64,000 bases of DNA, from positions 2,240,001 to 2,304,000 of the forward strand of contig OY970223.1 in NCBI GenBank assembly GCA_963714015.1, in the 5' to 3' direction. Shown one piece after another: positions 36,244-47,572 of this stretch. Positions within the stretch are counted from its first letter, which is position 1. Every line of letters begins with the position of its first letter. The stretch is from Vulcanimicrobiota bacterium (GTDB taxonomy: Bacteria; Vulcanimicrobiota; Vulcanimicrobiia; Vulcanimicrobiales; Vulcanimicrobiaceae). Under the pieces are notes generated by a model. The model searched no databases. It saw only the letters and a program-made list of their open reading frames with translations, and was not told the origin of the DNA. The translations under genes were made by a program, and so were the position numbers.

Positions 36244-37070
36244 TGCCAGTCAAAAAATACAAGCCGACCAGTCCCGGCAGACGCTTCGTGACGACGATGG
36301 ATTTCTCGGACCTGAGCAAGGTCGAGCCGGAGAAATCGCTCATCGAAGTGCGCAAGAAGCACTCGGGCCGTAACTTCAACGGGCACATTACCGTACGCCA
36401 CAAAGGCGGCGGGACGCGCAAGATGTACCGCATCATCGACTTCAAACGGACCAAAGACGCCGTTCCGGCCAAGGTGGCAACGATCGAATACGATCCGAAC
36501 CGCTCGGCTCGCATCGCGCTGGTGAACTATCGCGACGGCGAGAAGCGCTACATCCTCGCGCCGCTCGGTCTGAAGGTCGGCGACGTCGTCGAGTCCGGCG
36601 CCGCGGCCGACATCAAGATCGGCAACTGCCTTCCGATCAAAAACATCCCCGTCGGCACGGTCATTCACAACATCGAACTGCGGCCCGGACAAGGCGGCAA
36701 GCTCGTTCGCAGCGCCGGCGGCTCCGCACAGCTCATGGCCAAGGAAGGCGAATACGCCCAGGTACGTATGCCTTCGGGCGAGGTGCGCAAGGTGCTCGTG
36801 GTGTGCCGCGCGACGATCGGTCAGCTCGGCAACGTCGAGCACGAAAACGAAGTGGTAGGGAAAGCAGGTCGTCAGCGTCATCGCGGAAAGCGGCCGTCCG
36901 TTCGAGGCATTGCGATGAACCCGGTCGATCACCCGCACGGCGGCGGTGAAGCGCGTTCCACGTCCGGACGTCCGCCCACGACGCCTTGGGGCCAGATGAC
37001 GATGGGCAAGAAGACGCGCCGCAACAAGCGCACGCAAAACATGATCGTCCGTAAGAGAGGATCGAAATGA
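36243..37070 (+). CDS. rplB: 50S ribosomal protein L2
   Basis: [33 protein letters not shown]; alternative ATG at 36240. Confidence 0.99.
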
Positions 37071-37147
37071 TTCGAGTTCTGTTAGCCGTATGCGAGCCGC
37101 GCGATTCAGCGCGGCGGGCGCGCAGCTCAGAGTGGAGCGCCTTCTAA
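37067..37147 (+). other. candidate bridging mini-ORF (26 aa)
   Basis: ATGA overlap with the rplB stop; TAA ends 1 nt before the rpsS ATG. Confidence 0.4.
37096..37141 (+). repeat. structured intergenic element, short form (before rpsS)
   Basis: GCCGCGC-GATTCA-GCGCGGC hairpin, then GGCGC-GCA-GCT-CAG-AGT-GGA-GCGCC, 7 nt before ATG. Confidence 0.85.
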
Positions 37148-37148
37148 A

Positions 37149-37424
37149 ATGGGGCGCAGCCTTAAAAAGGGACCGTTCGTCGCGGATCGCTTGATTCAAA
37201 AAATCGAGGGCCTGAACGAGCGCCGTGAAAAGCGTGTCGTGAAAACGTGGAGTCGCGCCTCCACGATCGTGCCGGCCATGGTCGGCCATACAATCGGCGT
37301 GCACAACGGTAAGGCGCACGTTCCGGTATTCGTCACCGAAAATATGGTCGGGCACAAGCTCGGCGAGTTCGCGCCGACCCGGAACTTCCGCGGCCACGGC
37401 GGCGACAAAGCGGCGGTGAAGTAA
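37149..37424 (+). CDS. rpsS: 30S ribosomal protein S19
   Basis: [27 protein letters not shown]. Confidence 0.99.
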
Positions 37425-37933
37425 TGGAGGCCGTCGCGCATCTCAAGTTCGCCCGAATGGGTCCGCGCAAACTGCGCCGGGTTGCCGACGCCATTCGCGG
37501 CAAGAGCGTGAAAGAAGCGCTCGTGCTGCTGCAATTTGCCGGCGTCTTCGCGGCCGAGCCGATGGAAAAACTGCTGCGCAGCGCCGTCGCGAACGCTGAA
37601 AACAATCACGACATGAATGCCGACGCACTTTACGTTGCGCGGGTGACGGTGGACGGCGGGCCGGGCGGACGATTTACCAAACGCCTGGATCCGCGTGCAC
37701 AAGGGCGCGCGGCGTTCAAGCGCAAGCGCCTCGCGCACGTGACGATCGCCGTCGCAGAGCAGGCGCCCGTCAAAAAGCGCAAGCTCCTGGGCGGTGCTTC
37801 GGTTGCGCTCAAGCGCGCGACCACTCGCAAAACTAAAGCGGCGTCGGCGGCGCCGGCCGCCGGCGGCTCGCCTTCGAAGAAGGCCAGAACTTCAAAGAAA
37901 CCTTCTCGCCGGAATAAGGCGGAGGCGATTTAA
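37424..37933 (+). CDS. rplV: 50S ribosomal protein L22 with Lys/Ala-rich C-terminal extension
   Basis: [32 protein letters not shown]. Confidence 0.97.
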
Positions 37934-38829
37934 TGGGACAAAAGATTCATCCGATTGGGTTGCGTCTGGGCATCACGCGCACGTGGGACAGCCGCTGGTT
38001 CGAGAAAAAGCATTATAAGGACTGGCTGCACGAAGACGTCAAGATCCGCAGATACTTCACGCGATGGATGCGTCCGGCGGCCATCTCGAAGATCGAGATC
38101 GAGCGCCGCGCCAATCAAGCGCGCGTGATCGTGAATACGGGCAAGCCCGGCATCATCATCGGCAAGCGCGGCGTCGGCATCGAAGACATTCGCAAGAATC
38201 TCGAGAAGCTGACCGGCAAAGCGGTGCAAGTAAACGTGATGGAGATCAAGCATCCGGAACTGGATGCGCGTCTCGTCGCGCAGAATATCGTCGACCAGCT
38301 CGAAAAGCGCATTGCGTTCCGCCGCGCCATGAAGCAGGCCATCATGCGTACGATGAAGTCGGGCGCGCGCGGGATCAAAGTGCAGGTTTCGGGACGGTTG
38401 GGCGGCGCCGAAATCGCTCGCACCGAGCGCAATGCCGACGGCAAGGTTCCGCTGCACACGCTGCGAGCCGACATCGACTACGCGCACGTCGAAGCTTTCA
38501 CGACCTTCGGACGCATCGGCGTCAAAGTATGGATCTACCGCGGCGAAGTGCTGCCGGATCACGCACGTCAATCCGAGCGCGAAGGACGCCCCGAGCGTCC
38601 GCAATTCCGCGATCGTCGCGATCGCGGCGGACGCAGCCGCCGCGGCGGTCCCGGCACGGGAACTCCGCGTTCGCCGCAGACTGAAGCGCTTTCGCCCGTC
38701 GAAGCGCCCGTCGGCGAAGCGCCGGCCTTTGAGCCGACCGCGCCGCCGGTAGACTCTGCGCCCATTGCCGATGCGGCAGAGGCTCAAACCATCGTACCGC
38801 AATCCGAACCGACCGGAGAACAGGCGTAA
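37933..38829 (+). CDS. rpsC: 30S ribosomal protein S3 with long C-terminal extension
   Basis: [33 protein letters not shown]. Confidence 0.99.
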
Positions 38830-39251
38830 TGCTTACACCAAAACGCGTCAAATGGCGCAAAGTTCACCGTGGACGGATGACCGGCAAAGCCTTGCGCGGC
38901 AGTACCTTGACGTTCGGCGAGTACGGACTTCAAGCGCTCGAGCCGTGCTGGATGACCAACCGCCAGATTGAAGCTGCGCGTATTGCTATGACGCGCCACA
39001 TCAAACGCGGCGGCAAGGTCTGGATCAAGGTGTTTCCGGACAAGTCGGTTACCAAGAAACCCGCTGAGGTGCGCATGGGCGCCGGTAAAGGCAACCCGGA
39101 GTTCTGGGTAGCCGTGGTGCGTCCCGGGCGGGTGCTGTTCGAGCTTTCAGGTGTTGAGCCGGACGTAGCCAAACGCGCGCTTCAACTCGCCGCTTCAAAG
39201 CTGCCGATCGGAACGAAGTTGATTACCCGCGGCGAGGAGGCCCCGGCATGA
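38829..39251 (+). CDS. rplP: 50S ribosomal protein L16
   Basis: [21 protein letters not shown]. Confidence 0.99.
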
Positions 39252-39469
39252 TCTCGAGAGAGTTCAAAGAGCTGCGCAACCTCACCATCGGAGAGCTCCA
39301 GCAAAAGGCGAAAGAGACGAAGGAAGAGCTCTTCAATCTTCGCTTTGCGCTGCGCACCGGGCACCTTTCGGACTTCAGCAAAGTCCGGGCGATGCGGCGC
39401 ACCTACGCACAGATTCAAACCGTCATCTCCGAGAAACGGATCGCTGAGGCTAAGAATGGAGCAGCTTAA
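39248..39469 (+). CDS. rpmC: 50S ribosomal protein L29
   Basis: ELR.L...EL......KEELFNLRF...TG.L; expected position. Confidence 0.96.
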
Positions 39470-39728
39470 TACCGTCCGGCGCCGGGCACGGCGCCTTAAA
39501 CAAGGCCGCGTCGTCTCGGACAAGATGGACAAGACCATCGTCGTCCTTTCCGAGACGCGGGTTCCGCATCCGGTTTACGGCAAGATCGTCCGCAAGTCGG
39601 TAAAGTTCAAAGCGCACGACGAGCAAAACGACGCCAAGATCGGCGACACCGTTCGCATCATGGAATCGCGTCCGATGTCCAAAGACAAGCGCTGGCGCCT
39701 GGTCGAGATCGTGGAGCGTGCCAAATGA
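39456..39728 (+). CDS. rpsQ: 30S ribosomal protein S17
   Basis: [31 protein letters not shown]. Confidence 0.98.
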
Positions 39729-39796
39729 AGACTTTGATTGGGGCGCATCGCGTTATGGGGCGCGCGGAGCTCAGAGCGGAGCGCCTTTTCAAATGA
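39725..39796 (+). other. candidate bridging mini-ORF (23 aa, [23 protein letters not shown])
   Basis: ATGA overlap with the rpsQ stop at its start and with the rplN start at its end. Confidence 0.45.
39761..39785 (+). repeat. structured intergenic element, short form (before rplN)
   Basis: CGCGC-GGA-GCT-CAG-AGC-GGA-GCGCC, 7 nt before ATG. Confidence 0.88.
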
Positions 39797-40170
39797 TTCA
39801 GCAAGAAACGCGTTTAAAGGTGGCTGACAATTCCGGCGCGCGCGAGCTGCTGTGCATTCACGTGAGCGGCGGCAGCCGTCATCCATACGCACACGTGGGC
39901 GATATCATCGTGGGCACGGTCAAGAGCGCTATTCCCGGCGCGGCGGTCAAGAAAGGCCAAGTCGTCAAAGCGGTTATCGTCCGTACGTCCTCGCCGATTC
40001 GCCGGCCGGACGGATCGGTCGTCAAATGCGACGACAACGCCTGCGTGATCATCAAAGGCGAAAAGGACAATTTAGATCCGCGCGGGACGCGCGTCTTCGG
40101 CCCGGTCATGCGCGAATTGCGGGATCGCGGCTTTTTGAAGATCGCCTCGCTCGCGCCCGAGGTACTCTAA
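39793..40170 (+). CDS. rplN: 50S ribosomal protein L14
   Basis: [31 protein letters not shown]. Confidence 0.99.
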
Positions 40171-40173
40171 CAG

Positions 40174-40524
40174 ATGGCGAACATCGTCAGAGGCGACACC
40201 GTCATGATCCGGCGCGGCAAGGAAAAAGGCAAGCGCGGCACGGTCAAGGCCGTATTTCCGAAAGACGGAACGGCGACGGTCGAGGGCCTGAACATCGTCA
40301 AACGGCACACCAAGCAGGGCACGCAGTCGCAAAACATGGGCGGCTCTGCGCAGACCGGCGGCATCATCGAGAAGGAGGCTCCGCTTCCACTCTCCGTGCT
40401 GATGTACGTGTGCGAGAAGTGCAAAGCACCTTCTCGGCTTCGTCATCACGAGACGGCCGAAGGTACGCATCGGGTCTGCGCGCGCTGCGGCGAACCCGCT
40501 CGTCTCTCCGCAAAGGGCGCATGA
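40174..40524 (+). CDS. rplX: 50S ribosomal protein L24
   Basis: GDTV...GKEKGKRG, VEGLNIVKRH, GGIIEKEAP; C-terminal CxxC...CxxC. Confidence 0.98.
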   Translation: MANIVRGDTVMIRRGKEKGKRGTVKAVFPKDGTATVEGLNIVKRHTKQGTQSQNMGGSAQTGGIIEKEAPLPLSVLMYVCEKCKAPSRLRHHETAEGTHRVCARCGEPARLSAKGA

Positions 40525-40652
40525 TGGCAGTATCATTGTGGGCTTCCTCGGGGAGGTTTCAAGTTGCAACAAAGTTCGCGCGCCCTGCGGTAGCGGGGAC
40601 CCCGGCGCTTGCGCTGGGTGGGGCGGAGGTTAGACCGGAGCGCCATGCTTAG
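40521..40652 (+). other. candidate bridging mini-ORF (43 aa)
   Basis: ATGA overlap with the rplX stop; reads through the whole element and stops 8 nt into rplE. Confidence 0.4.
40541..40644 (+). repeat. structured intergenic element, long form (before rplE)
   Basis: CCTCGGGGAGG...CAACAAAG...CGCGCCCTGCGG...variable hairpin...GGGGC-GGA-GGT-TAG-ACC-GGA-GCGCC, directly abutting ATG. Confidence 0.9.
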
Positions 40653-41196
40653 ATTGAAAGAAAAATACGATAAGGAAGTCCGCAAGCAGCTTCAGGAACG
40701 CTTCGGATATAAGAACGCTCACCAGATCCCGAAGCTGGAGAAGGTCGTCATCAACATGAGCGTGGGCGAAGCGATCAGCAACGGCAAGGCACTCGACGCG
40801 GCGGTCTCGGAGCTCCAGGCGATTAGCGGGCAAAAGCCGGTAATCACCAAAGCGAAGAAGTCGATAGCCGCCTTTAAGCTGCGCGAAGGCATGAACATCG
40901 GCACGAAAGTCACGCTCCGCGGCGAGCGCATGTACGTGTTCTTGGACAAGCTCTTCAACATCGTGCTGCCGCGCATCCGCGACTTCCGCGGTCTGCCCCG
41001 CAAATCGTTCGACGGACGCGGCAATTACAATCTGGGTCTTCGCGAGCAGATCGTCTTCCCGGAGATCAACTTCGACAAGGTCGACAAGATGCGCGGGATG
41101 GACATCGTCATCGTAACGTCGGCAAAGAACGACGAAGAAGCGACGGAATTTCTCACGGCAATGGGTTTGCCGCTTCAGAAAACGGGAGCCCGCTAA
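40645..41196 (+). CDS. rplE: 50S ribosomal protein L5
   Basis: [33 protein letters not shown]. Confidence 0.99.
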
Positions 41197-41381
41197 TGGC
41201 GAAAACTTCTCTCATCGAAAAATCCAAGCGCACGCCAAAGTTCAAGGTGCGCGCCCACAACCGGTGCCAGCTGTGCGGACGTCCGCGCAGCGTGTACCGC
41301 CGTTTCGGGCTGTGCCGCATCTGCTTCCGGGAGAACGCCCACAAAGGCAACATCCCGGGCGTGACCAAGGCGTCGTGGTGA
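41196..41381 (+). CDS. rpsN: 30S ribosomal protein S14, short zinc-binding type
   Basis: 61 aa with [17 protein letters not shown] and PGVTKASW. Confidence 0.98.
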
Positions 41382-41388
41382 TCCGGTA

Positions 41389-41790
41389 ATGGCTGTAATT
41401 ACCGATCCTATCGCCGATCTGCTGACGCGCATTCGCAATGCCAATACGGCCAGCCATGAGGTCGTTGAAATTCCTGCGTCGCGCATGAAACAAGCTGTGG
41501 CTCAAATCCTCAAGGACGAGGGCTTCATCAAGGACTTCGAGCGCGTCGACGAGGGGCCGCAAGGCAGGATCAAGATCACTCTCAAGTACGGCCCGGACAA
41601 AGAGAAAGTCATCACCGGTCTGCGGCGCATCTCGCGTCCCGGTCTGCGCGTATATACGAGCAAGACCGAGATACCTCGGGTTTTAGGCGGACTGGGCCTG
41701 GTCATCATGTCCACTTCCAAGGGCATCATGTCGGGCAAACGCGCGAAAAAAGAAGGATGCGGAGGCGAAGTTTTGGCGTATGTGTGGTGA
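41389..41790 (+). CDS. rpsH: 30S ribosomal protein S8
   Basis: [37 protein letters not shown]. Confidence 0.99.
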
Positions 41791-41900
41791 TGAACAAAGC
41801 GACAATCGGGGCGCCCTCGGGGAGGCTTCAAATTACAACGCATCTTCCGCGCCCTGCGGCGGGGGGCCCCATTGGTTGCAATGGGGGGCGCGGAGCTTAG
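41790..41900 (+). other. candidate bridging mini-ORF (36 aa)
   Basis: TGATG overlap with the rpsH stop; its stop codon is the TAG loop of the conserved hairpin. Confidence 0.4.
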
Positions 41901-41911
41901 AGCGGAGCGCC
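41810..41911 (+). repeat. structured intergenic element, long form (before rplF)
   Basis: GGCGCCCTCGGGGAGGCTT...CAAC...CGCGCCCTGCGG...CCCCATTG-GTTG-CAATGGGG-GGCGC-GGA-GCT-TAG-AGC-GGA-GCGCC, 7 nt before ATG. Confidence 0.92.
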
Positions 41912-41918
41912 ACTTAAA

Positions 41919-42467
41919 ATGTCTAGAATTGGAAAGCTTCCCGTAACTGTTCCGAACGGCGTCAATGTGAACGTCGAAGGAGACGAAGTCGCGGTCAAGG
42001 GGCCAAAGGGCGAGTTGCGGCAGCGCGTGCTTTCACACGTCACCGTCGCGGTCGAAGACGGCAAGGTCGTCATCACGCGGAACGGTGAGGCGAAGGAACA
42101 TCGCGCGGCGCACGGTCTGACGCGAACGATCGTCAACAACATGGTCGAAGGCGTCAGCAAGGGCTTCCGCAAGAGCCTGGAGATTCAGGGTGTCGGTTAC
42201 CGAGCCTCAAAGTCCGGCGAGAAGATCAATCTGACGCTGGGGTACTCGCATCCGGTGAGCTACGATCCGCCGAAGGGCATCGCGCTTTCCGTCGAGGGCA
42301 CCAACAAGATCCACGTCGAGGGCATCGACAAGCAGCAAGTCGGACAGGTTGCCGCCGAAATTCGCAATCTGCGTCCGCCCGAGCCGTACAAGGGTAAAGG
42401 CGTGCGCTACGAAGGCGAAGTGGTGCGTAAGAAGCTCGGCAAGGCCGGAAAGGCTGGTAAGAAGTAA
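41919..42467 (+). CDS. rplF: 50S ribosomal protein L6
   Basis: [26 protein letters not shown]. Confidence 0.99.
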
Positions 42468-42832
42468 TGCCGCGTATTTCCAAAGATCTGAGCCGCCGCA
42501 AGCGCCACGAGCGTCTGCGCCGCAAAGTCGTGGGAAGCTCGGAGCGCCCTCGCTTGCTGATCCGCCGTACGCTGCATCACATCTACGCGACGGTCGTCGA
42601 CGACGCTAAGGGGCATACCGTCGTGGCCGCCTCGACGCGCGAGAAGGATCTTACGGACGGTTTGGATTCCACGACGAACGTCGCCGCAGCCGAGAAGATC
42701 GGCGCGGCAATCGCCGCTAAGGCAAAGCAGGCCGGCATCACGCAGGTCGTCTTCGATCGCAGCGGTTTGAAATATCACGGCCGCGTCAAAGCACTCGCCG
42801 ACGCAGCTCGCCAAGCAGGCTTGGAGTTTTAA
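42467..42832 (+). CDS. rplR: 50S ribosomal protein L18
   Basis: RH.RLR.KV.G..ERPRL, VVFDRSG.KYHGRV.ALA. Confidence 0.98.
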
Positions 42833-43344
42833 TGCAGTATCGTGGTGGTCGCGATCGCGACAATTCGGGATTCGAAGAGACAGTCGTCCGAGTGAACCGC
42901 GTCGCCAAAGTGGTCAAGGGCGGTAAGCGCTTCAGCTTCAGCGCTTTGGTCGTTGTCGGCGATCGCAAAGGCAAGGTCGGTTTCGCTATCGGCAAGGCCG
43001 GCGAAGTCCCCGAAGCAATCCGCAAAGCCGTTGAGGCGGCCAAGAAAAACCTCGTCTCCGTGCCGATGGTCGAGAAGACGATCCCGCATCAGGTCAATCA
43101 TTCGATCGGTGCGGCGCGCGTGCTCCTCAAACCCGCGGCGCCCGGTACCGGGGTCATTGCGGGCGGCGCTATGCGCGCGGTGCTGGAGCTCGCGGGCATT
43201 CACGACATTCTGACCAAGTCGCTCGGAACGAACAATCCGATCAACGTCGTCTACGCGACGGTAGAAGCGCTGCGTTCGCTCAAGACGGCGGAGCAAGTTG
43301 CATCGATGCGCGGCAAGAACGTCGGCGAAATCTTCGCGGCATAA
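42832..43344 (+). CDS. rpsE: 30S ribosomal protein S5
   Basis: [30 protein letters not shown]. Confidence 0.99.
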
Positions 43345-43358
43345 GAAAGCACACGAAC

Positions 43359-43961
43359 ATGGCAGAGAAGAAAACGTCCAAAGCCGCAACCTCGCGCAAG
43401 AAGGCTCCGGCGGCAAAGGCGGCAGCAAAGAAGCGAAGCACGGCAAGTGCCGTCACCGCCGCCGCGATTGCGTCCGGGAGCGGCTCGATGTCGCTTGGAA
43501 AGCTCAAACCGGCCGAAGGCAGCTGGCCCAAGCGCACGCGCGTGGGCCGCGGTCACGGTTCCGGAATGGTTAAGACCGGCGGCGAAGGCGGCAAAGGTCA
43601 GACGGTGCGTTCCGGCGGCGGTAAAGGTCCGGCGTTCGAAGGCGGACAGACACCTTGGCAGCGCCGTCTTCCGCATCGTCGCGGCTACTCGCAAAAAGCC
43701 CGCGACATCGGTCATTTCCGGACCGAGCTCGCGGTTGTAAATCTGCATGACCTTGCGGACTGGGACGCCTCGGTCGAAGTGACGCCGCAGACGCTCAAGG
43801 TCGCGAAGAAGATCAAAGCCGTGCGCGACGGCGTGAAGGTCCTCGGCGGTAGCAAGGCGGGGAAGACGCTTCCGAACGGCCTTCGTTTCCGCGACGTTTT
43901 ATTCTCGACCAGCGCAAAGGAAGCACTGCAAGCCGCCGGCGCCACCTTCGATGCTGAATAA
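43359..43961 (+). CDS. rplO: 50S ribosomal protein L15 with 43-aa Lys/Ala-rich N-terminal extension (alternative start 43488)
   Basis: RVGRGHGSG..KTGG.GGKGQ..RSG, FEGGQTP..RRLP, VKVLG. Confidence 0.95.
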   Translation: MAEKKTSKAATSRKKAPAAKAAAKKRSTASAVTAAAIASGSGSMSLGKLKPAEGSWPKRTRVGRGHGSGMVKTGGEGGKGQTVRSGGGKGPAFEGGQTPWQRRLPHRRGYSQKARDIGHFRTELAVVNLHDLADWDASVEVTPQTLKVAKKIKAVRDGVKVLGGSKAGKTLPNGLRFRDVLFSTSAKEALQAAGATFDAE

Positions 43962-45255
43962 TCTTCGCGCAGCTCTGCTCGTACCGGACATCCGCAAGCG
44001 GGTGCTCTTCGTGTTCGGCGCGTTCGCGACGTTCGTCTTTATGATCCACGTGCAGCTGCCGAACATCGATGAAAAAGTTTGGCAGCAGGTGCTCTCGCAG
44101 GGCGCGTTCTTCAACCTGCTCGGCTTTCTGTCGGGCGGCGCACTGCAGAAGCTCTCCATCATTGCGATGGGCATCACCCCGTACATCAACGCGTCGATCA
44201 TCATGCAGCTCATGACGGTGGTGCTGCCGCAACTCGAAGAGATGGCCAAGAAAGGCGGCGAGGAAGGCCGCAAGAAGATCGGTCAGTACACTCGCTGGCT
44301 AACGATTGTGCTCGCTGCACTCCAATCGTTTTTCATGGCCAATCTGATGCGCAACTCCGGCGTGTTCTACGACCGGAGCATCTGGTTTCTGCTCTTCGCG
44401 ATGCTGGCGTTCGTCGCCGGTACGCTGTTCCTGATGTGGCTCGGCGAGCAGGTCACCGACAAGGGCATCGGCAACGGCGTCTCGCTGATCATCTTCATCG
44501 GTATCGTGCTGCGCTATCCGCAGTACGTAGCCCAAACGTTCGCCTCGACCTCCAAAGGCGGCGAGTCCGTTTTCAACATCCTCATTTACGTCCTGATAGC
44601 GATAGGCGTAATCATCTCGATCGTCTTCCTTTATCAAGGGCAGCGCCGCATTCCGGTGCAGCAGGCGCGCCGCGTCGTGGGCCGCAAGATGTTCGCGGGC
44701 CGCTCCACGTATATTCCGTTGCGGCTGAACAACGCGGGCGTCATCTCGATCATCTTCGCAATCTCGCTGCTGCTGCTTCCCCAGCAAGTTCTCTCGTGGG
44801 TCAACAAGGCGCAGAACGGCGGCTCGTCCAGCGGATTCATGGGCGGCCTCTCGACGTTCTTCCAGGTCTACTTCCACCCGCAGTCGGCGCTGTACAACAT
44901 CGTCTATTTCGTGCTGGTCGTCGTCTTCACGTTCTTCTACAGCGCGATCGTCATCAACACCAAAGACATCGCGGACAACCTGAAAAAGAGCGGGTCGTTC
45001 ATCCCGGGAATCCGTCCGGGTCAACCGACGGTCGACTACATCAATCGCATCTTGCTGCGAATCACGACGGCCGCCGCGATCTATCTCGGATTGCTCGCGG
45101 TCGTGCCCAGCATTGCCCAGCAAGGACTCTCCGTTACTACGTTCTACTTGGGTTCAACGTCACTGCTGATCGTGGTCGGCGTGGCGCTGGATACGATCAC
45201 GCAGATCGAGGCGCGCCTGGCGATGCGCGACTACAAGGGATTCATCCGCAGGTAG
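43951..45255 (+). CDS. secY: preprotein translocase subunit SecY
   Basis: GITPYINASIIMQL, WLGEQ.T.KGIGNG.SL, FIPGIRPG, TSLLIVVGV. Confidence 0.99.
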   Translation: MLNNLRAALLVPDIRKRVLFVFGAFATFVFMIHVQLPNIDEKVWQQVLSQGAFFNLLGFLSGGALQKLSIIAMGITPYINASIIMQLMTVVLPQLEEMAKKGGEEGRKKIGQYTRWLTIVLAALQSFFMANLMRNSGVFYDRSIWFLLFAMLAFVAGTLFLMWLGEQVTDKGIGNGVSLIIFIGIVLRYPQYVAQTFASTSKGGESVFNILIYVLIAIGVIISIVFLYQGQRRIPVQQARRVVGRKMFAGRSTYIPLRLNNAGVISIIFAISLLLLPQQVLSWVNKAQNGGSSSGFMGGLSTFFQVYFHPQSALYNIVYFVLVVVFTFFYSAIVINTKDIADNLKKSGSFIPGIRPGQPTVDYINRILLRITTAAAIYLGLLAVVPSIAQQGLSVTTFYLGSTSLLIVVGVALDTITQIEARLAMRDYKGFIRR

Positions 45256-45262
45256 GGGCGTA

Positions 45263-45928
45263 GTGCGGTTGATCTTCATCGGTCCGCCCGGCGCGGGCAA
45301 GGGCACGCAGGCAAAGATTCTGCAAGAGCGCTTCGGCGCCAAGCAGATCTCGACCGGCGACATCTTGCGTGAGAATCGGGAGCAAGGAACGGAGCTCGGC
45401 AAGCTCGCGGCGAGCTTCATGCAGAGCGGCGCGCTGGTTCCGGACGAGGTCATCATCAAGATGATCGAAGCGGAGCTCGACAAGCTCGACGGCGGTTTCA
45501 TCATGGACGGTTTTCCACGAACGGTCGCGCAGGCGGAAGCGTTCGACTGTTTATTGCAGGGCAAGAACCTCGTCCTCGACGGCGTGGTTCACTTCAACGC
45601 GGACCGCGCAACGCTGCTTACGCGTCTGACGGCGCGCTGGACGAACCCGCGCAACGGCCAAACCTACAACACCGTGACCAATCCGCCGCGCGTTTCGGGT
45701 GTGGACGACGAAGACGGCGGCCCGCTCGTGCAGCGTGAGGACGACAAACCGGAAACCGTTACGAAGCGTCTGGACGTGTACGAGGAGCAAACCGCGCCGC
45801 TTGTCTCCTACTATCGCGGGACGGGAAAACTCGTCGAAGTGAACGCGCTTGCGCCGGTTCCTGCGGTCACCGAAGAGATCGTTTCGAAGATCGGTGTGCA
45901 CGCCGCCGGGCGCAACGCGGCGCAATGA
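45263..45928 (+). CDS. adk: adenylate kinase
   Basis: GPPGAGKGTQA, STGDILR, DGFPRT, QREDD. Confidence 0.98.
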   Translation: MRLIFIGPPGAGKGTQAKILQERFGAKQISTGDILRENREQGTELGKLAASFMQSGALVPDEVIIKMIEAELDKLDGGFIMDGFPRTVAQAEAFDCLLQGKNLVLDGVVHFNADRATLLTRLTARWTNPRNGQTYNTVTNPPRVSGVDDEDGGPLVQREDDKPETVTKRLDVYEEQTAPLVSYYRGTGKLVEVNALAPVPAVTEEIVSKIGVHAAGRNAAQ

Positions 45929-46728
45929 TCACGATCAAGTCGGCCCGTGAAATCGAGGTGATGCGGCGCAGCGGAAAGGTCAACGCCAAGGTGCTGGCCG
46001 ATCTGATGCGCGCGGCCAAGCCCGGCATGACGACGCGCGATCTCGACAAGATGGCCGAGCAAGGCATTCGATCGCTGGGCGCTGAGCCGACGTTCAAAGG
46101 TTATCACGGGTATACGTGTTCGATCTGCACGTCGGCGAACGATCAAGTCGTGCACGGAATTCCCGGCGACTACGCTTTGAAGGAAGGCGACCTGCTCTCG
46201 ATCGACATCGGGGCGACGCTCGAGGGCTACGTCAGCGACTCGGCTGTAACGATTCCGATCGGCAAAGTCTCCGAGGACGCTCAGCGGCTGATGCACGTGA
46301 CGCAGGAGTGCTTAATGATTGGAATCGCGCAGATGTATCGGGGCAAGCATTTGGGCGACATCGGCCACGCGGTTCAAAAGCACGCCGAATCGCACGGATA
46401 CGGCGTGGTCCGCGAACTAGTCGGGCACGGCGTCGGAACGAAAATGCACGAGGAGCCGCAAGTCCCGAACTACGGCAAGGCAGGCGGGGGGTTGGAGCTT
46501 CGGTCGGGGCTTGTCCTGGCCATCGAGCCCATGATAACGCAAGGCCACTACGCCGTGGAAACGCTCAAGGACGGCTGGACAGTGGTGACCGCAGATGGTA
46601 AACTCGCAGCGCACTTCGAGCACACCATCGCCATCACCGACGACGGCCCCAAGATTCTTACCTTGCGCGAAATCGGGGAGCATCCCGACGTCGCGAAGTA
46701 CCGGCCAAAGGAAGAGATGGCCGCATGA
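45925..46728 (+). CDS. map: methionine aminopeptidase type I
   Basis: VVHGIP, IDIG...DSA, GHGVG..MHEEP, AIEPM, AHFEHT. Confidence 0.98.
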   Translation: MITIKSAREIEVMRRSGKVNAKVLADLMRAAKPGMTTRDLDKMAEQGIRSLGAEPTFKGYHGYTCSICTSANDQVVHGIPGDYALKEGDLLSIDIGATLEGYVSDSAVTIPIGKVSEDAQRLMHVTQECLMIGIAQMYRGKHLGDIGHAVQKHAESHGYGVVRELVGHGVGTKMHEEPQVPNYGKAGGGLELRSGLVLAIEPMITQGHYAVETLKDGWTVVTADGKLAAHFEHTIAITDDGPKILTLREIGEHPDVAKYRPKEEMAA

Positions 46729-46743
46729 GGTGGTGCTCGATGG

Positions 46744-47007
46744 GGCGCGGAGGCTAGGCCGAAGCGCCGTTAGAAATCGTCCCGGCGCCCCTCGGGGAGG
46801 CTTGGACCGGCAACAAAGCACTAGGGCGCCTGAGGAATCGGGGGCCCCATGAAATGGGGGGCGCGGAGGCTAGGCCGAAGCGCCGCTAGATCGAGCAAAA
46901 TCGTCCCGGCGCCCCTCGGGGAGGCTTGGACGGCAACAAAGCACTAGGGCGCCTGAGGAATCGGGGGCCCCATGAAATGGGGGGCGCGGAGGCTAGGCCG
47001 AAGCGCC
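46744..47007 (+). repeat. tandem array of the structured element (three terminal hairpins, two full long-form units)
   Basis: GGCGC-GGA-GGC-TAG-GCC-GAA-GCGCC at 46744, 46860 and 46983. Long units 46784-46884 and 46908-47007 differ by one base. Confidence 0.95.
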
Positions 47008-47014
47008 GTTAGAT

Positions 47015-47131
47015 ATGAAAGTCAGACCGTCAGTAAAACGAATCTGTGAAAAATGCAAAATCATTCGCCGCGAAGGTAAAGTGCGCGTGATCTGCGAGGT
47101 CAATCCCAAGCACAAGCAAGTGCAGGGTTAG
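47015..47131 (+). CDS. rpmJ: 50S ribosomal protein L36
   Basis: Manual translation [38 protein letters not shown] (below the ORF-track length cutoff). Confidence 0.99.
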
Positions 47132-47185
47132 GCTTATAAACGCTACCCTTCGACCAGCTCAGGATCATAAGGAAGAATTTAAAAA

Positions 47186-47572
47186 ATGGCACGTATAGCC
47201 GGTATCGACCTTCCCCGCGACAAGCGCATCGAGATCGCGCTTACGTACATCTACGGGATCGGTCTGAGGACCTCGCAGAAGCTGCTCGCGCACGCGGGAA
47301 TCAGCCCGGATCTGCGCGTCAAAGAGTTGAGCGAAGATCACGAGAAGAAGCTGCGCGACGCGATCGACGCGGTCGGGATAAAAGTCGAAGGCGATCTGCG
47401 GCGCGAGGTCGGCTCGCACATCAAGCGGCTGATGGATATCGGCTGCTATCGCGGCATTCGGCACCGGCGCGGCCTTCCGGTCCGCGGCCAGCGTACCAAG
47501 ACCAACGCGCGCACGCGGAAGGGCCCGAAGAAAACGGTCGGCAACCGGAAAAAAGCGGCCGCTAAGAAGTAG
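47186..47572 (+). CDS. rpsM: 30S ribosomal protein S13
   Basis: [36 protein letters not shown]. Confidence 0.99.

Follow-up and report, generated by a model that had tools for sequence, protein, structure and literature searches.

This stretch of the genome of a Vulcanimicrobiota bacterium raises the question of why one small hairpin should recur at a fixed place before several genes of a ribosomal protein cluster. The window analyzed is a 64-kb stretch (positions 2240001-2304000) of the single contig that makes up the source genome, here called G000 (3,562,638 bp, 60.9% G+C). Its first-pass annotation reported seven same-strand copies of a 25-nt hairpin and tied them to ribosomal protein operons. 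When the window was searched with the hairpin motif GGCGCGGANNNYAGNNNGRAGCGCC, allowing up to two mismatches, exactly those seven copies were found, all on the + strand (the P4 positions of Table 1), and none elsewhere in the 64 kb; 0.04 matches were expected in the shuffled window, and none of 100 shuffles reached seven. The compensatory inner stem was likewise read at the copies, in the variants GCT/AGT, GCT/AGC, GGT/ACC and GGC/GCC. The hairpin ends 7 nt 5' to the ATG of rpsS, rplN, rplF and rpmJ and is in direct contact with the ATG of rplE. Five of the copies mark gene starts; the other two are inner members of a tandem array upstream of rpmJ. The hairpin is real, but it proved to be just the 3' part of a larger repeat, some 120 nt long, that is dispersed through the genome and stands directly 5' to the start codons of unrelated genes. 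The repeat is probably, on balance, a start-codon-associated dispersed element resembling in behavior the interspersed repetitive units of mycobacteria (MIRUs), and it would supply ribosome-binding context to the next gene and preserve translational coupling.

The unit was defined by aligning the flanks of all good hairpin matches across the whole G000 genome. It is GC-rich and about 115-135 nt long. A short 5' linker, often ending in AATCT, precedes GGCGC(C), the 5' strand of a helix designated P1; inside P1 are a nearly invariant CCCNNGGGGAR and a variable stretch of about 22 nt, and GCGCC forms its 3' strand. There follow A/CTGAGG, a short spacer, GGGGG, a hairpin P3 (CCCCNN...NNGGGG) and then P4, the hairpin of the window search. 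P4 is succeeded by a U/A-rich tail of 6-7 nt, TTTYAAA, and by ATG if the copy is the last of its locus. Both P3 and P4 were recovered by RNAalifold. The 3x3 internal loop of P4 has the form 5'-GNA/5'-GNA. On each of its two sides the G and the A are retained in no fewer than 98 of 99 copies, with a free middle base. A 5' hairpin, CUCCCCG/CGGGGAG, was tried as a further general helix and rejected, as it pairs in only 61.8% of cells and shows zero double changes. Upstream of fliG (about 1950480-1950570 of G000) this hairpin recurs without the rest of the unit: several tandem repeats of just the 5' module (ATCTCCCCGGCGCCCTCGGGGAGTGAACGA, a 7-bp hairpin) come before the full copy. A similar partial 5' duplication lies upstream of a NifU-like gene (about 1539735-1539790).

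A covariance model (CM) was built from 24 G000 copies, and 76 copies from 13 other genomes were fitted to it. In this set, in which fitting to the model favors structure, 96.8% of the cells of P1, P3 and P4 were paired, and helices slid out of register as controls paired in 37-61% of cells only. Double-sided changes amounted to 161 cells, compared with 43.9 (sd 7.4) in shuffles, none of 500 of which reached 161. P1 is exchanged wholesale between a GGCGCC/GGCGCC type and a GAGCCC/GGGCUC type. All three helices covary strongly in copies from other genomes. Within the helices, G.U pairs outnumber A.C pairs by 34 to 17, a mild hint that the sense strand is the folding strand. The rplF copy folds at -52.9 kcal/mol, with z = -0.52 relative to shuffles; energy alone is therefore uninformative.

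G000 contains 44 copies by nhmmer and 46 by the CM. They occupy about 27 loci, including three with weak partial matches only, as tandem arrays of 1-5. The last copy abuts the start codon of a long open reading frame (ORF) at 20 of the 27 loci and a start lies within 15 nt at 4 more, which gives 24 of 27 with a co-oriented start codon within 15 nt; the same pattern was seen in relatives. Identified by Pfam or by plain reading, the downstream genes encode GyrB, AtpA, MreB, LpxA, RF1 (prfA), NuoN, FliG, FliH, FlbD, a NifU-like protein, a PASTA kinase, T2SS-F, GNAT, a WYL regulator, a class V aminotransferase, DUF1246/1297 and others, in addition to the ribosomal proteins S19, L14, L5, L6 and L36. 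Since the genes served are unrelated, the element is not specific to ribosomal-protein operons, and the suggested tie to their autoregulation was not borne out. Nor was the opposite picture found, that of an ordinary repeat with hundreds of copies in both orientations and no fixed spacing to start codons. The only inverted pair of copies, at 2740118-2740286 of G000 (hits 2740118/2740253), places a - strand full copy back to back with a + strand solo P4; the neighboring sequence resembles a tRNA T-arm, and neither copy is at a start codon.

The element is restricted to one family. In the host's own family (f1), whose source records carry names such as Baltobacteraceae and Eremiobacterota and to which the host is assigned by the names on L6 homologues, 17 of 24 genomes had CM matches, a count that takes in the unpublished genomes G010, G021 and G023; there were none in 5 genomes of a second family of the order (f2) and none in 11 of a third family of the class (f3). 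In an even sample of the phylum, 43 of 71 f1 genomes were positive and 0 of 79 genomes from 20 other families. The number of copies per element-bearing genome varied between 1 and about 46. When 185,579 species genomes were scanned for the pattern, 70 stretches were obtained, of which 63 passed the CM; the other seven, from other phyla, were singletons and all failed it. The 63 had Eremiobacterota-type titles, or Binatia or Acidoferrum titles with L14, L6 or AtpA 74-94% identical to those of G000. Several records titled Candidatus Binatia or Candidatus Acidoferrum are rich in copies (L217, L228, L234, L270 and others in G041; L232, L242 and L247 in G042 and G043). Relative to G000 their AtpA is 81%, their L14 90-94% and their L6 74% identical, and given such identity these are relatives whose labels look wrong, or the bins are mixed. 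A limited search of the literature on Eremiobacterota repeats, a weak check, found no such element.

In the 13 other genomes a start codon lies 5-8 nt 3' of P4 in 47 of 74 copies. In relatives dozens of unrelated genes are served, mostly metabolic and housekeeping; examples are PolA exonuclease, AlaRS, transketolase, ThiG, DnaJ, shikimate kinase, a FabZ-like protein, AtpA, S19 and L6. Copies are more alike within a genome (61.5% identity) than between genomes (51.8%), and in G015 all 21 copies have their nearest neighbor in their own genome, which points to lineage bursts or homogenization. The f2 genomes lack the element; a different motif, GAGTGGGGAGC, recurs in them 4-7 nt upstream of the ATG, within inserts measuring 42-101 nt at rpsH-rplF (L064, L065, L068, L070) and rpsQ-rplN (L152); this may be a second, unrelated family of start-proximal repeats.

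Comparison of the same junctions across genomes shows occupancy that differs between close relatives, and the element probably comes, goes and decays over the time that separates genera. The rplX-rplE insert is present only in G000 among 26 genomes, the other 25 having 2-17 nt between these genes. At rpsH-rplF, recognizable element sequence was found in G000, G017 and the unpublished G010, two full copies and one partial copy in G007, a 30-nt remnant in G001 and a 3' piece only in G018; in G002, which like G001 belongs to the genus of G000, and in most others, the junction is empty (0-17 nt). The rpsQ-rplN junction is empty in G001 and G002, where the genes overlap as ...AAGTGAT... (GTGA). In G000 the same junction reads ...AAATGA, then a 64-nt internally deleted copy, then ATGAT..., and both the upstream stop and the downstream start are kept. 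At atpH-atpA a copy or remnant was found in all five genomes, each beginning with ATGAAC 1-8 nt 3' of the atpH stop. The inserts of G000, G001 and G002 have three different lengths, all in frame from the 5' ATG to the TGA that overlaps the atpA ATG, and the atpA remnants retain little beyond GGAGCGCC, seven bases and ATGA. The relatives have a native GAGGAG and GTG at lpxA; in G000 the element replaces the GTG and brings its own ATG. At infA-rpmJ the element occurs in G001, G009, G014, G015 and G017, and in G011 without infA at the junction; it either precedes the native AGGAA or touches the ATG.

The copies of an array hardly differ in sequence, and their number varies; the rplF junction, for instance, has one copy in G000 and two full copies plus a partial one in G007. 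In the mreB array of G000 (798972-799525) four inner units lack P4, each being broken inside the P4 5' arm and rejoined at the next P1, and a native AGGAG stands between the last copy and the start. As this array exemplifies, the sequences indicate that arrays form by duplication in place, between short GC-rich repeats that the unit contains.

The genes of the S10/spc cluster are joined almost throughout by 1-nt (TAATG/TGATG) or 4-nt (ATGA) overlaps (at 37424, 37933, 38829, 39248, 41196, 42467 and 42832), and ATGA is the commonest stop context in G000 (298 of 2353 long ORFs, 12.7%). Because operons of this genome are full of such stop/start overlaps, a structured insert of 120 nt would break this coupling. 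In 60 of 63 full-length terminal copies, however, a frame is open through the body of the element and stops at -6 to +9 of the start, usually at the TGA of ATGA or at a TAA 0-1 nt before the ATG. When the frames are tallied, 70 of 81 with a near-start stop are open, compared with 36 of 108 without one. Of 68 starts, 48 have A at +4 and so read ATGA. A complete bridge from the upstream stop, defined as a start codon at -12 to +15 of that stop whose frame reaches the downstream start, with a co-oriented upstream ORF required, was present at 14 of 25 G000 loci and at 12 of the 16 single-copy loci. The upstream stop reads ATGA at 9 of the 25 loci, well above the genomic background (binomial p = 0.0025). 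The 7-nt tail puts the TAG of the P4 loop in the gene's frame at -21, so that stops are possible in all three frames within about 25 nt. No conserved peptide is encoded: P3 loop lengths differ by non-multiples of three, and covariation of the inner stem alters residues. A conserved internal start (GGAGG, 7 nt, GUG/AUG) was also considered and was found in a few copies only (161002, 2759946), not generally.

Taken together, these features suggest the following course of events. The element, which is non-coding, would enter in sense orientation between a stop codon (or in a 5' untranslated region) and the next start, and may multiply locally into arrays. The 3' arm of P4, CGGAGCGCC, with the 6-7 nt tail and an ATG that is often ATGA, would then take over initiation of the downstream gene, with the GGAG in P4 acting as a putative Shine-Dalgarno sequence. 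An open frame without a conserved peptide would cross the element and stop at or next to the start (AUGA, or UAA 0-1 nt before AUG), and at single-copy intercistronic sites it would tend to begin at the upstream stop, in an ATGA or TTGA overlap. Because such a frame begins at the upstream stop and ends at the start, ribosomes arriving from the upstream gene could melt the helices and re-initiate, and coupling could survive the 120-nt structured insert. What keeps P1, P3 and P4 in place may be the spread of the element itself or the stability of the RNA. The first-pass annotation had also proposed a link with translation, and this idea has fared well: co-orientation and the 6-7 nt spacing hold genome- and family-wide, and decayed copies keep the GGAG-bearing 3' arm and the spacer. 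Its fallback proposal, a dispersed repeat resembling repetitive extragenic palindromic (REP) elements or miniature inverted-repeat transposable elements (MITEs), agrees with the 44-46 copies, the tandem amplification, the confinement to one family and the variable occupancy among close relatives.

Several points count against this account. Transcription through the element is deduced from its operon position, and translation of the crossing frame is suggested by its sequence. By chance, roughly every second frame through the GC-rich element is open (170 of 306 in sense, 166 of 306 in antisense and 141 of 306 after shuffling), and the frame statistics overstate independence because the copies are related. 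The crossing frame begins with a start codon at varying places, and of the 9 tandem arrays just 2 are bridged completely from the upstream stop. The GGAG sits 10-11 nt from the ATG, a long distance, and about 30% of copies have GAAG, GCAG or GUAG instead. Simple read-through leaves the conservation of P1, P3, P4 and the G.A/N.N/A.G loop unexplained, and no transposase was found to be tied to the element.

One alternative is that the repeat is a cis-regulatory RNA, a mobile operator at which a protein or ligand bound to the P4 loop (G.A/N.N/A.G) or to CCCNNGGGGAR in P1 co-regulates translation of the tagged genes. Such a role would suit the covariation of the three helices and their conserved unpaired purines, the fixed spacing to the start codon, the partial sequestration of GGAG by P4, the G.U excess expected of sense-strand folding, and its recurrence at shared junctions in different genera (at atpA in 5 of 5 genomes and at infA-rpmJ in 6 or more). 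We nevertheless regard it as unlikely. The target genes lack functional coherence, tandem copies are near-identical and vary in number, close relatives do without the element at the same junction, atpA of G001 and G002 is served by a remnant with a decayed P4, and folding energy is no better than that of shuffles. No Rfam family matched, whether at the gathering score over the 64 kb or, for 36900-47200, at E values up to 1. On similar grounds the class of riboswitch and protein-binding leader regulons was set aside: the structure is conserved, but the targets are unrelated and the positions are polymorphic between close relatives.

The two ideas could be combined in a mobile 'translation cassette' with its own Shine-Dalgarno sequence, spacer and start codon that is also the operator of a trans-acting factor reading the P4 loop or CCCNNGGGGAR. 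On the sequence features described we hold this to be quite improbable; if it were true, 25-45 unrelated operons per genome would form one post-transcriptional regulon, rewired at each move and joining ribosomal, ATP synthase, gyrase, cell-shape and flagellar operons.

A role in mRNA processing or stability, in which sites for RNase III, E or J or protective caps would segment transcripts and stabilize the downstream cistron, also seems to us a poor prospect. REP elements of enteric bacteria have a comparable role, most copies of the present repeat are intercistronic and co-oriented, and their stable GC-rich hairpins lie directly 5' to the start codon. The exact spacing of 6-7 nt, the ATGA at both ends and the frame kept in remnants would remain unexplained. 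Intrinsic termination or attenuation, which calls for a T-run after a GC-rich hairpin, was rejected: of 11 terminator-like sites in 36900-47200 none coincides with P4, and the tail has only 3-4 T before A. In the scan of this region the elements contained neither promoter-like sites on the + strand nor terminator-like sites.

Derivation from a REP/REPIN or IS200/IS605 (PATE) hairpin, moved as single-stranded DNA by a Y1 HUH transposase (RAYT/TnpA) that recognizes the hairpins and a target such as ATGA, is very unlikely in our estimation. Subterminal hairpins with compensatory changes, the right one 6-7 nt from the element's end, strict orientation and ATGA on both flanks at several loci are what such a mechanism would leave. 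The family Y1_Tnp (PF01797), however, was found in none of the 18 element-bearing genomes, the single-contig G000 among them, and turned up solely in the element-free G016 and in five f3 genomes; the copies are not in inverted pairs, one locus excepted, and lie 5' rather than 3' of genes. ATGA stands on both flanks at about 6 loci and does not do so at lpxA, sufU and prfA. For the DDE (PF01609, PF00665) and tyrosine recombinase genes of G000 no link to the element was found, the ends of insertion sequences not having been compared. A retro-element origin of the 5'-truncated copies was discarded, there being no RVT_1 in G000. Finally, a leader specific to ribosomal proteins, with several operator sites per operon, can hardly be credited: 5 of the 7 window copies precede ribosomal protein genes, but the genome-wide distribution refutes it, with about 22 of about 27 G000 loci preceding non-ribosomal genes, targets in relatives mostly metabolic, no Rfam r-leader match and no copy in the rRNA operon region of G000.

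The closest parallel to the MIRU-like element that we favor is indeed with the MIRUs, which were reportedly studied by Supply et al. in 1997, as cited in a review. The sections of the review PMC12548453 that deal with them describe MIRUs as apparently mobile units whose insertion sites are start codons and whose ORF is coupled to the gene at a spacing of -4. Like MIRUs, the present units are short non-coding intergenic repeats, co-oriented with the flanking genes and often tandem with variable copy number; they stand at start codons, often with a putative ORF whose stop overlaps the gene start at -4 (ATGA), and in both cases the arrangement would keep translation coupled and make an insertion tolerable. 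They belong to another phylum, are longer (115-135 nt, MIRUs being 40-100 bp), have three covarying helices and a conserved purine internal loop, have a crossing frame fixed neither in start nor in peptide, and themselves carry a GGAG and spacer that replace the native ribosome-binding site. The likeness is one of behavior; no sequence relation is claimed, and we do not call the element a MIRU.

REP, BIME and REPIN-RAYT elements are also GC-rich imperfect palindromes, dispersed, transcribed with neighboring genes and lineage-specific; they lie mostly 3' of genes and are 20-40 nt long, often in inverted pairs, whereas the present copies lie 5' of start codons in fixed orientation as multi-helix units of about 120 nt in direct arrays, with one inverted pair. 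MITEs such as Correia/NEMIS, ERIC and RUP are likewise non-autonomous, about 100-150 nt long, subject to lineage-specific bursts and able to alter adjacent expression; unlike them, the present element is strictly in sense and abuts start codons. No convincing terminal inverted repeats were seen in reading the consensus beyond GGCGC, shared between the ends in the inverted sense, and as to a target-site duplication, ATGA flanks some of the loci only. In the bicistronic-design or leader-ORF cassettes treated in the same sections of PMC12548453, a short ORF ending at the gene start delivers ribosomes and neutralizes inhibitory structure; these are engineered, whereas here the arrangement would be natural and carried on a repeat.

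If the MIRU-like interpretation is right, the MIRU strategy, by which a selfish repeat in compact, overlap-rich operons survives by standing exactly at start codons and keeps ribosomes flowing, would not be a mycobacterial oddity; in an uncultivated phylum from soil it would have arisen as a version whose RNA or DNA helices are conserved. The element would also offer a natural system in which to ask how well translational coupling withstands a structured spacer of 120 nt. In annotation of Eremiobacterota genomes the element puts start codons and operon boundaries at risk and may give spurious small ORFs and contig breaks at arrays; the arrays themselves are markers of the variable-number tandem repeat type for strain tracking.

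Table 1. Copies of the element in the window, their parts and the frames that cross them (window coordinates).
Feature	Position	Strand	Boundaries and details
5'-truncated copy, rplB-rpsS	37071..37148	+	rplB stop TGA 37068-37070 (ATGA 37067-37070); rpsS ATG 37149
Parts of rpsS copy	P4 37117-37141; tail TTCTAAA 37142-37148		P3-like hairpin before P4; nhmmer model positions 67-123
Bridging frame, rpsS	37067..37147	+	26 codons; ATG overlaps rplB stop; TAA 37145-37147, 1 nt from ATG
Internally deleted copy, rpsQ-rplN	39729..39792	+	5' linker and GGGGCGC fused to P4 39761-39785; tail TTTTCAA
Flanks of rplN copy	ATGA 39725-39728; ATGA 39793-39796		rpsQ stop; rplN start
Bridging frame, rplN	39725..39796	+	23 codons; from ATGA at rpsQ stop to TGA overlapping rplN ATG
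Full-length copy, rplX-rplE	40525..40644	+	rplX stop 40522-40524 (ATGA 40521-40524); rplE ATG 40645; no tail
Parts of rplE copy	P1 ~40540-40543 with 40582-40585; P3 40600-40619; P4 40620-40644
Bridging frame, rplE	40521..40652	+	43 codons; ATG overlaps rplX stop; TAG 40650-40652, 5 nt into rplE
Full-length copy, rpsH-rplF	41791..41918	+	rpsH stop 41788-41790; rplF ATG 41919
Parts of rplF copy	P1 41810-41814 with 41849-41853; P3 41867-41886; P4 41887-41911		conserved CCCTCGGGGAGG 41815-41826; tail ACTTAAA
Bridging frame, rplF	41780..41917	+	45 codons; TAA 1 nt before rplF ATG
Second frame, rplF copy	ATG 41790 to TAG 41898-41900	+	TAG in P4 loop
Tandem array, map-rpmJ	46729..47014	+	map stop 46726-46728 (ATGA 46725-46728); rpmJ ATG 47015 (reads ATGA)
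Members of rpmJ array	46744-46768; 46777-46890; 46901-47014		solo P4; full copy (P4 46860-46884); full copy (P4 46983-47007)

Two sites in the window merit separate mention (Table 1). The rplE ATG has no spacer to the hairpin, and a TTG 9 nt downstream (40654) fits the usual family spacing better; the N-terminus reads MLRLKEKY in G000 and MNRLKEKY in relatives, and the true rplE start is uncertain. Between map and rpmJ, infA is missing in G000 and the array stands in its place; most relatives keep infA there. A divergent infA-like ORF, 56% identical to infA of G001, lies on the - strand at 2604412-2604681 of G000. The element may drive gene loss; the array occupies the usual place of infA, and recombination between flanking repeat copies could have deleted the spc-linked gene.

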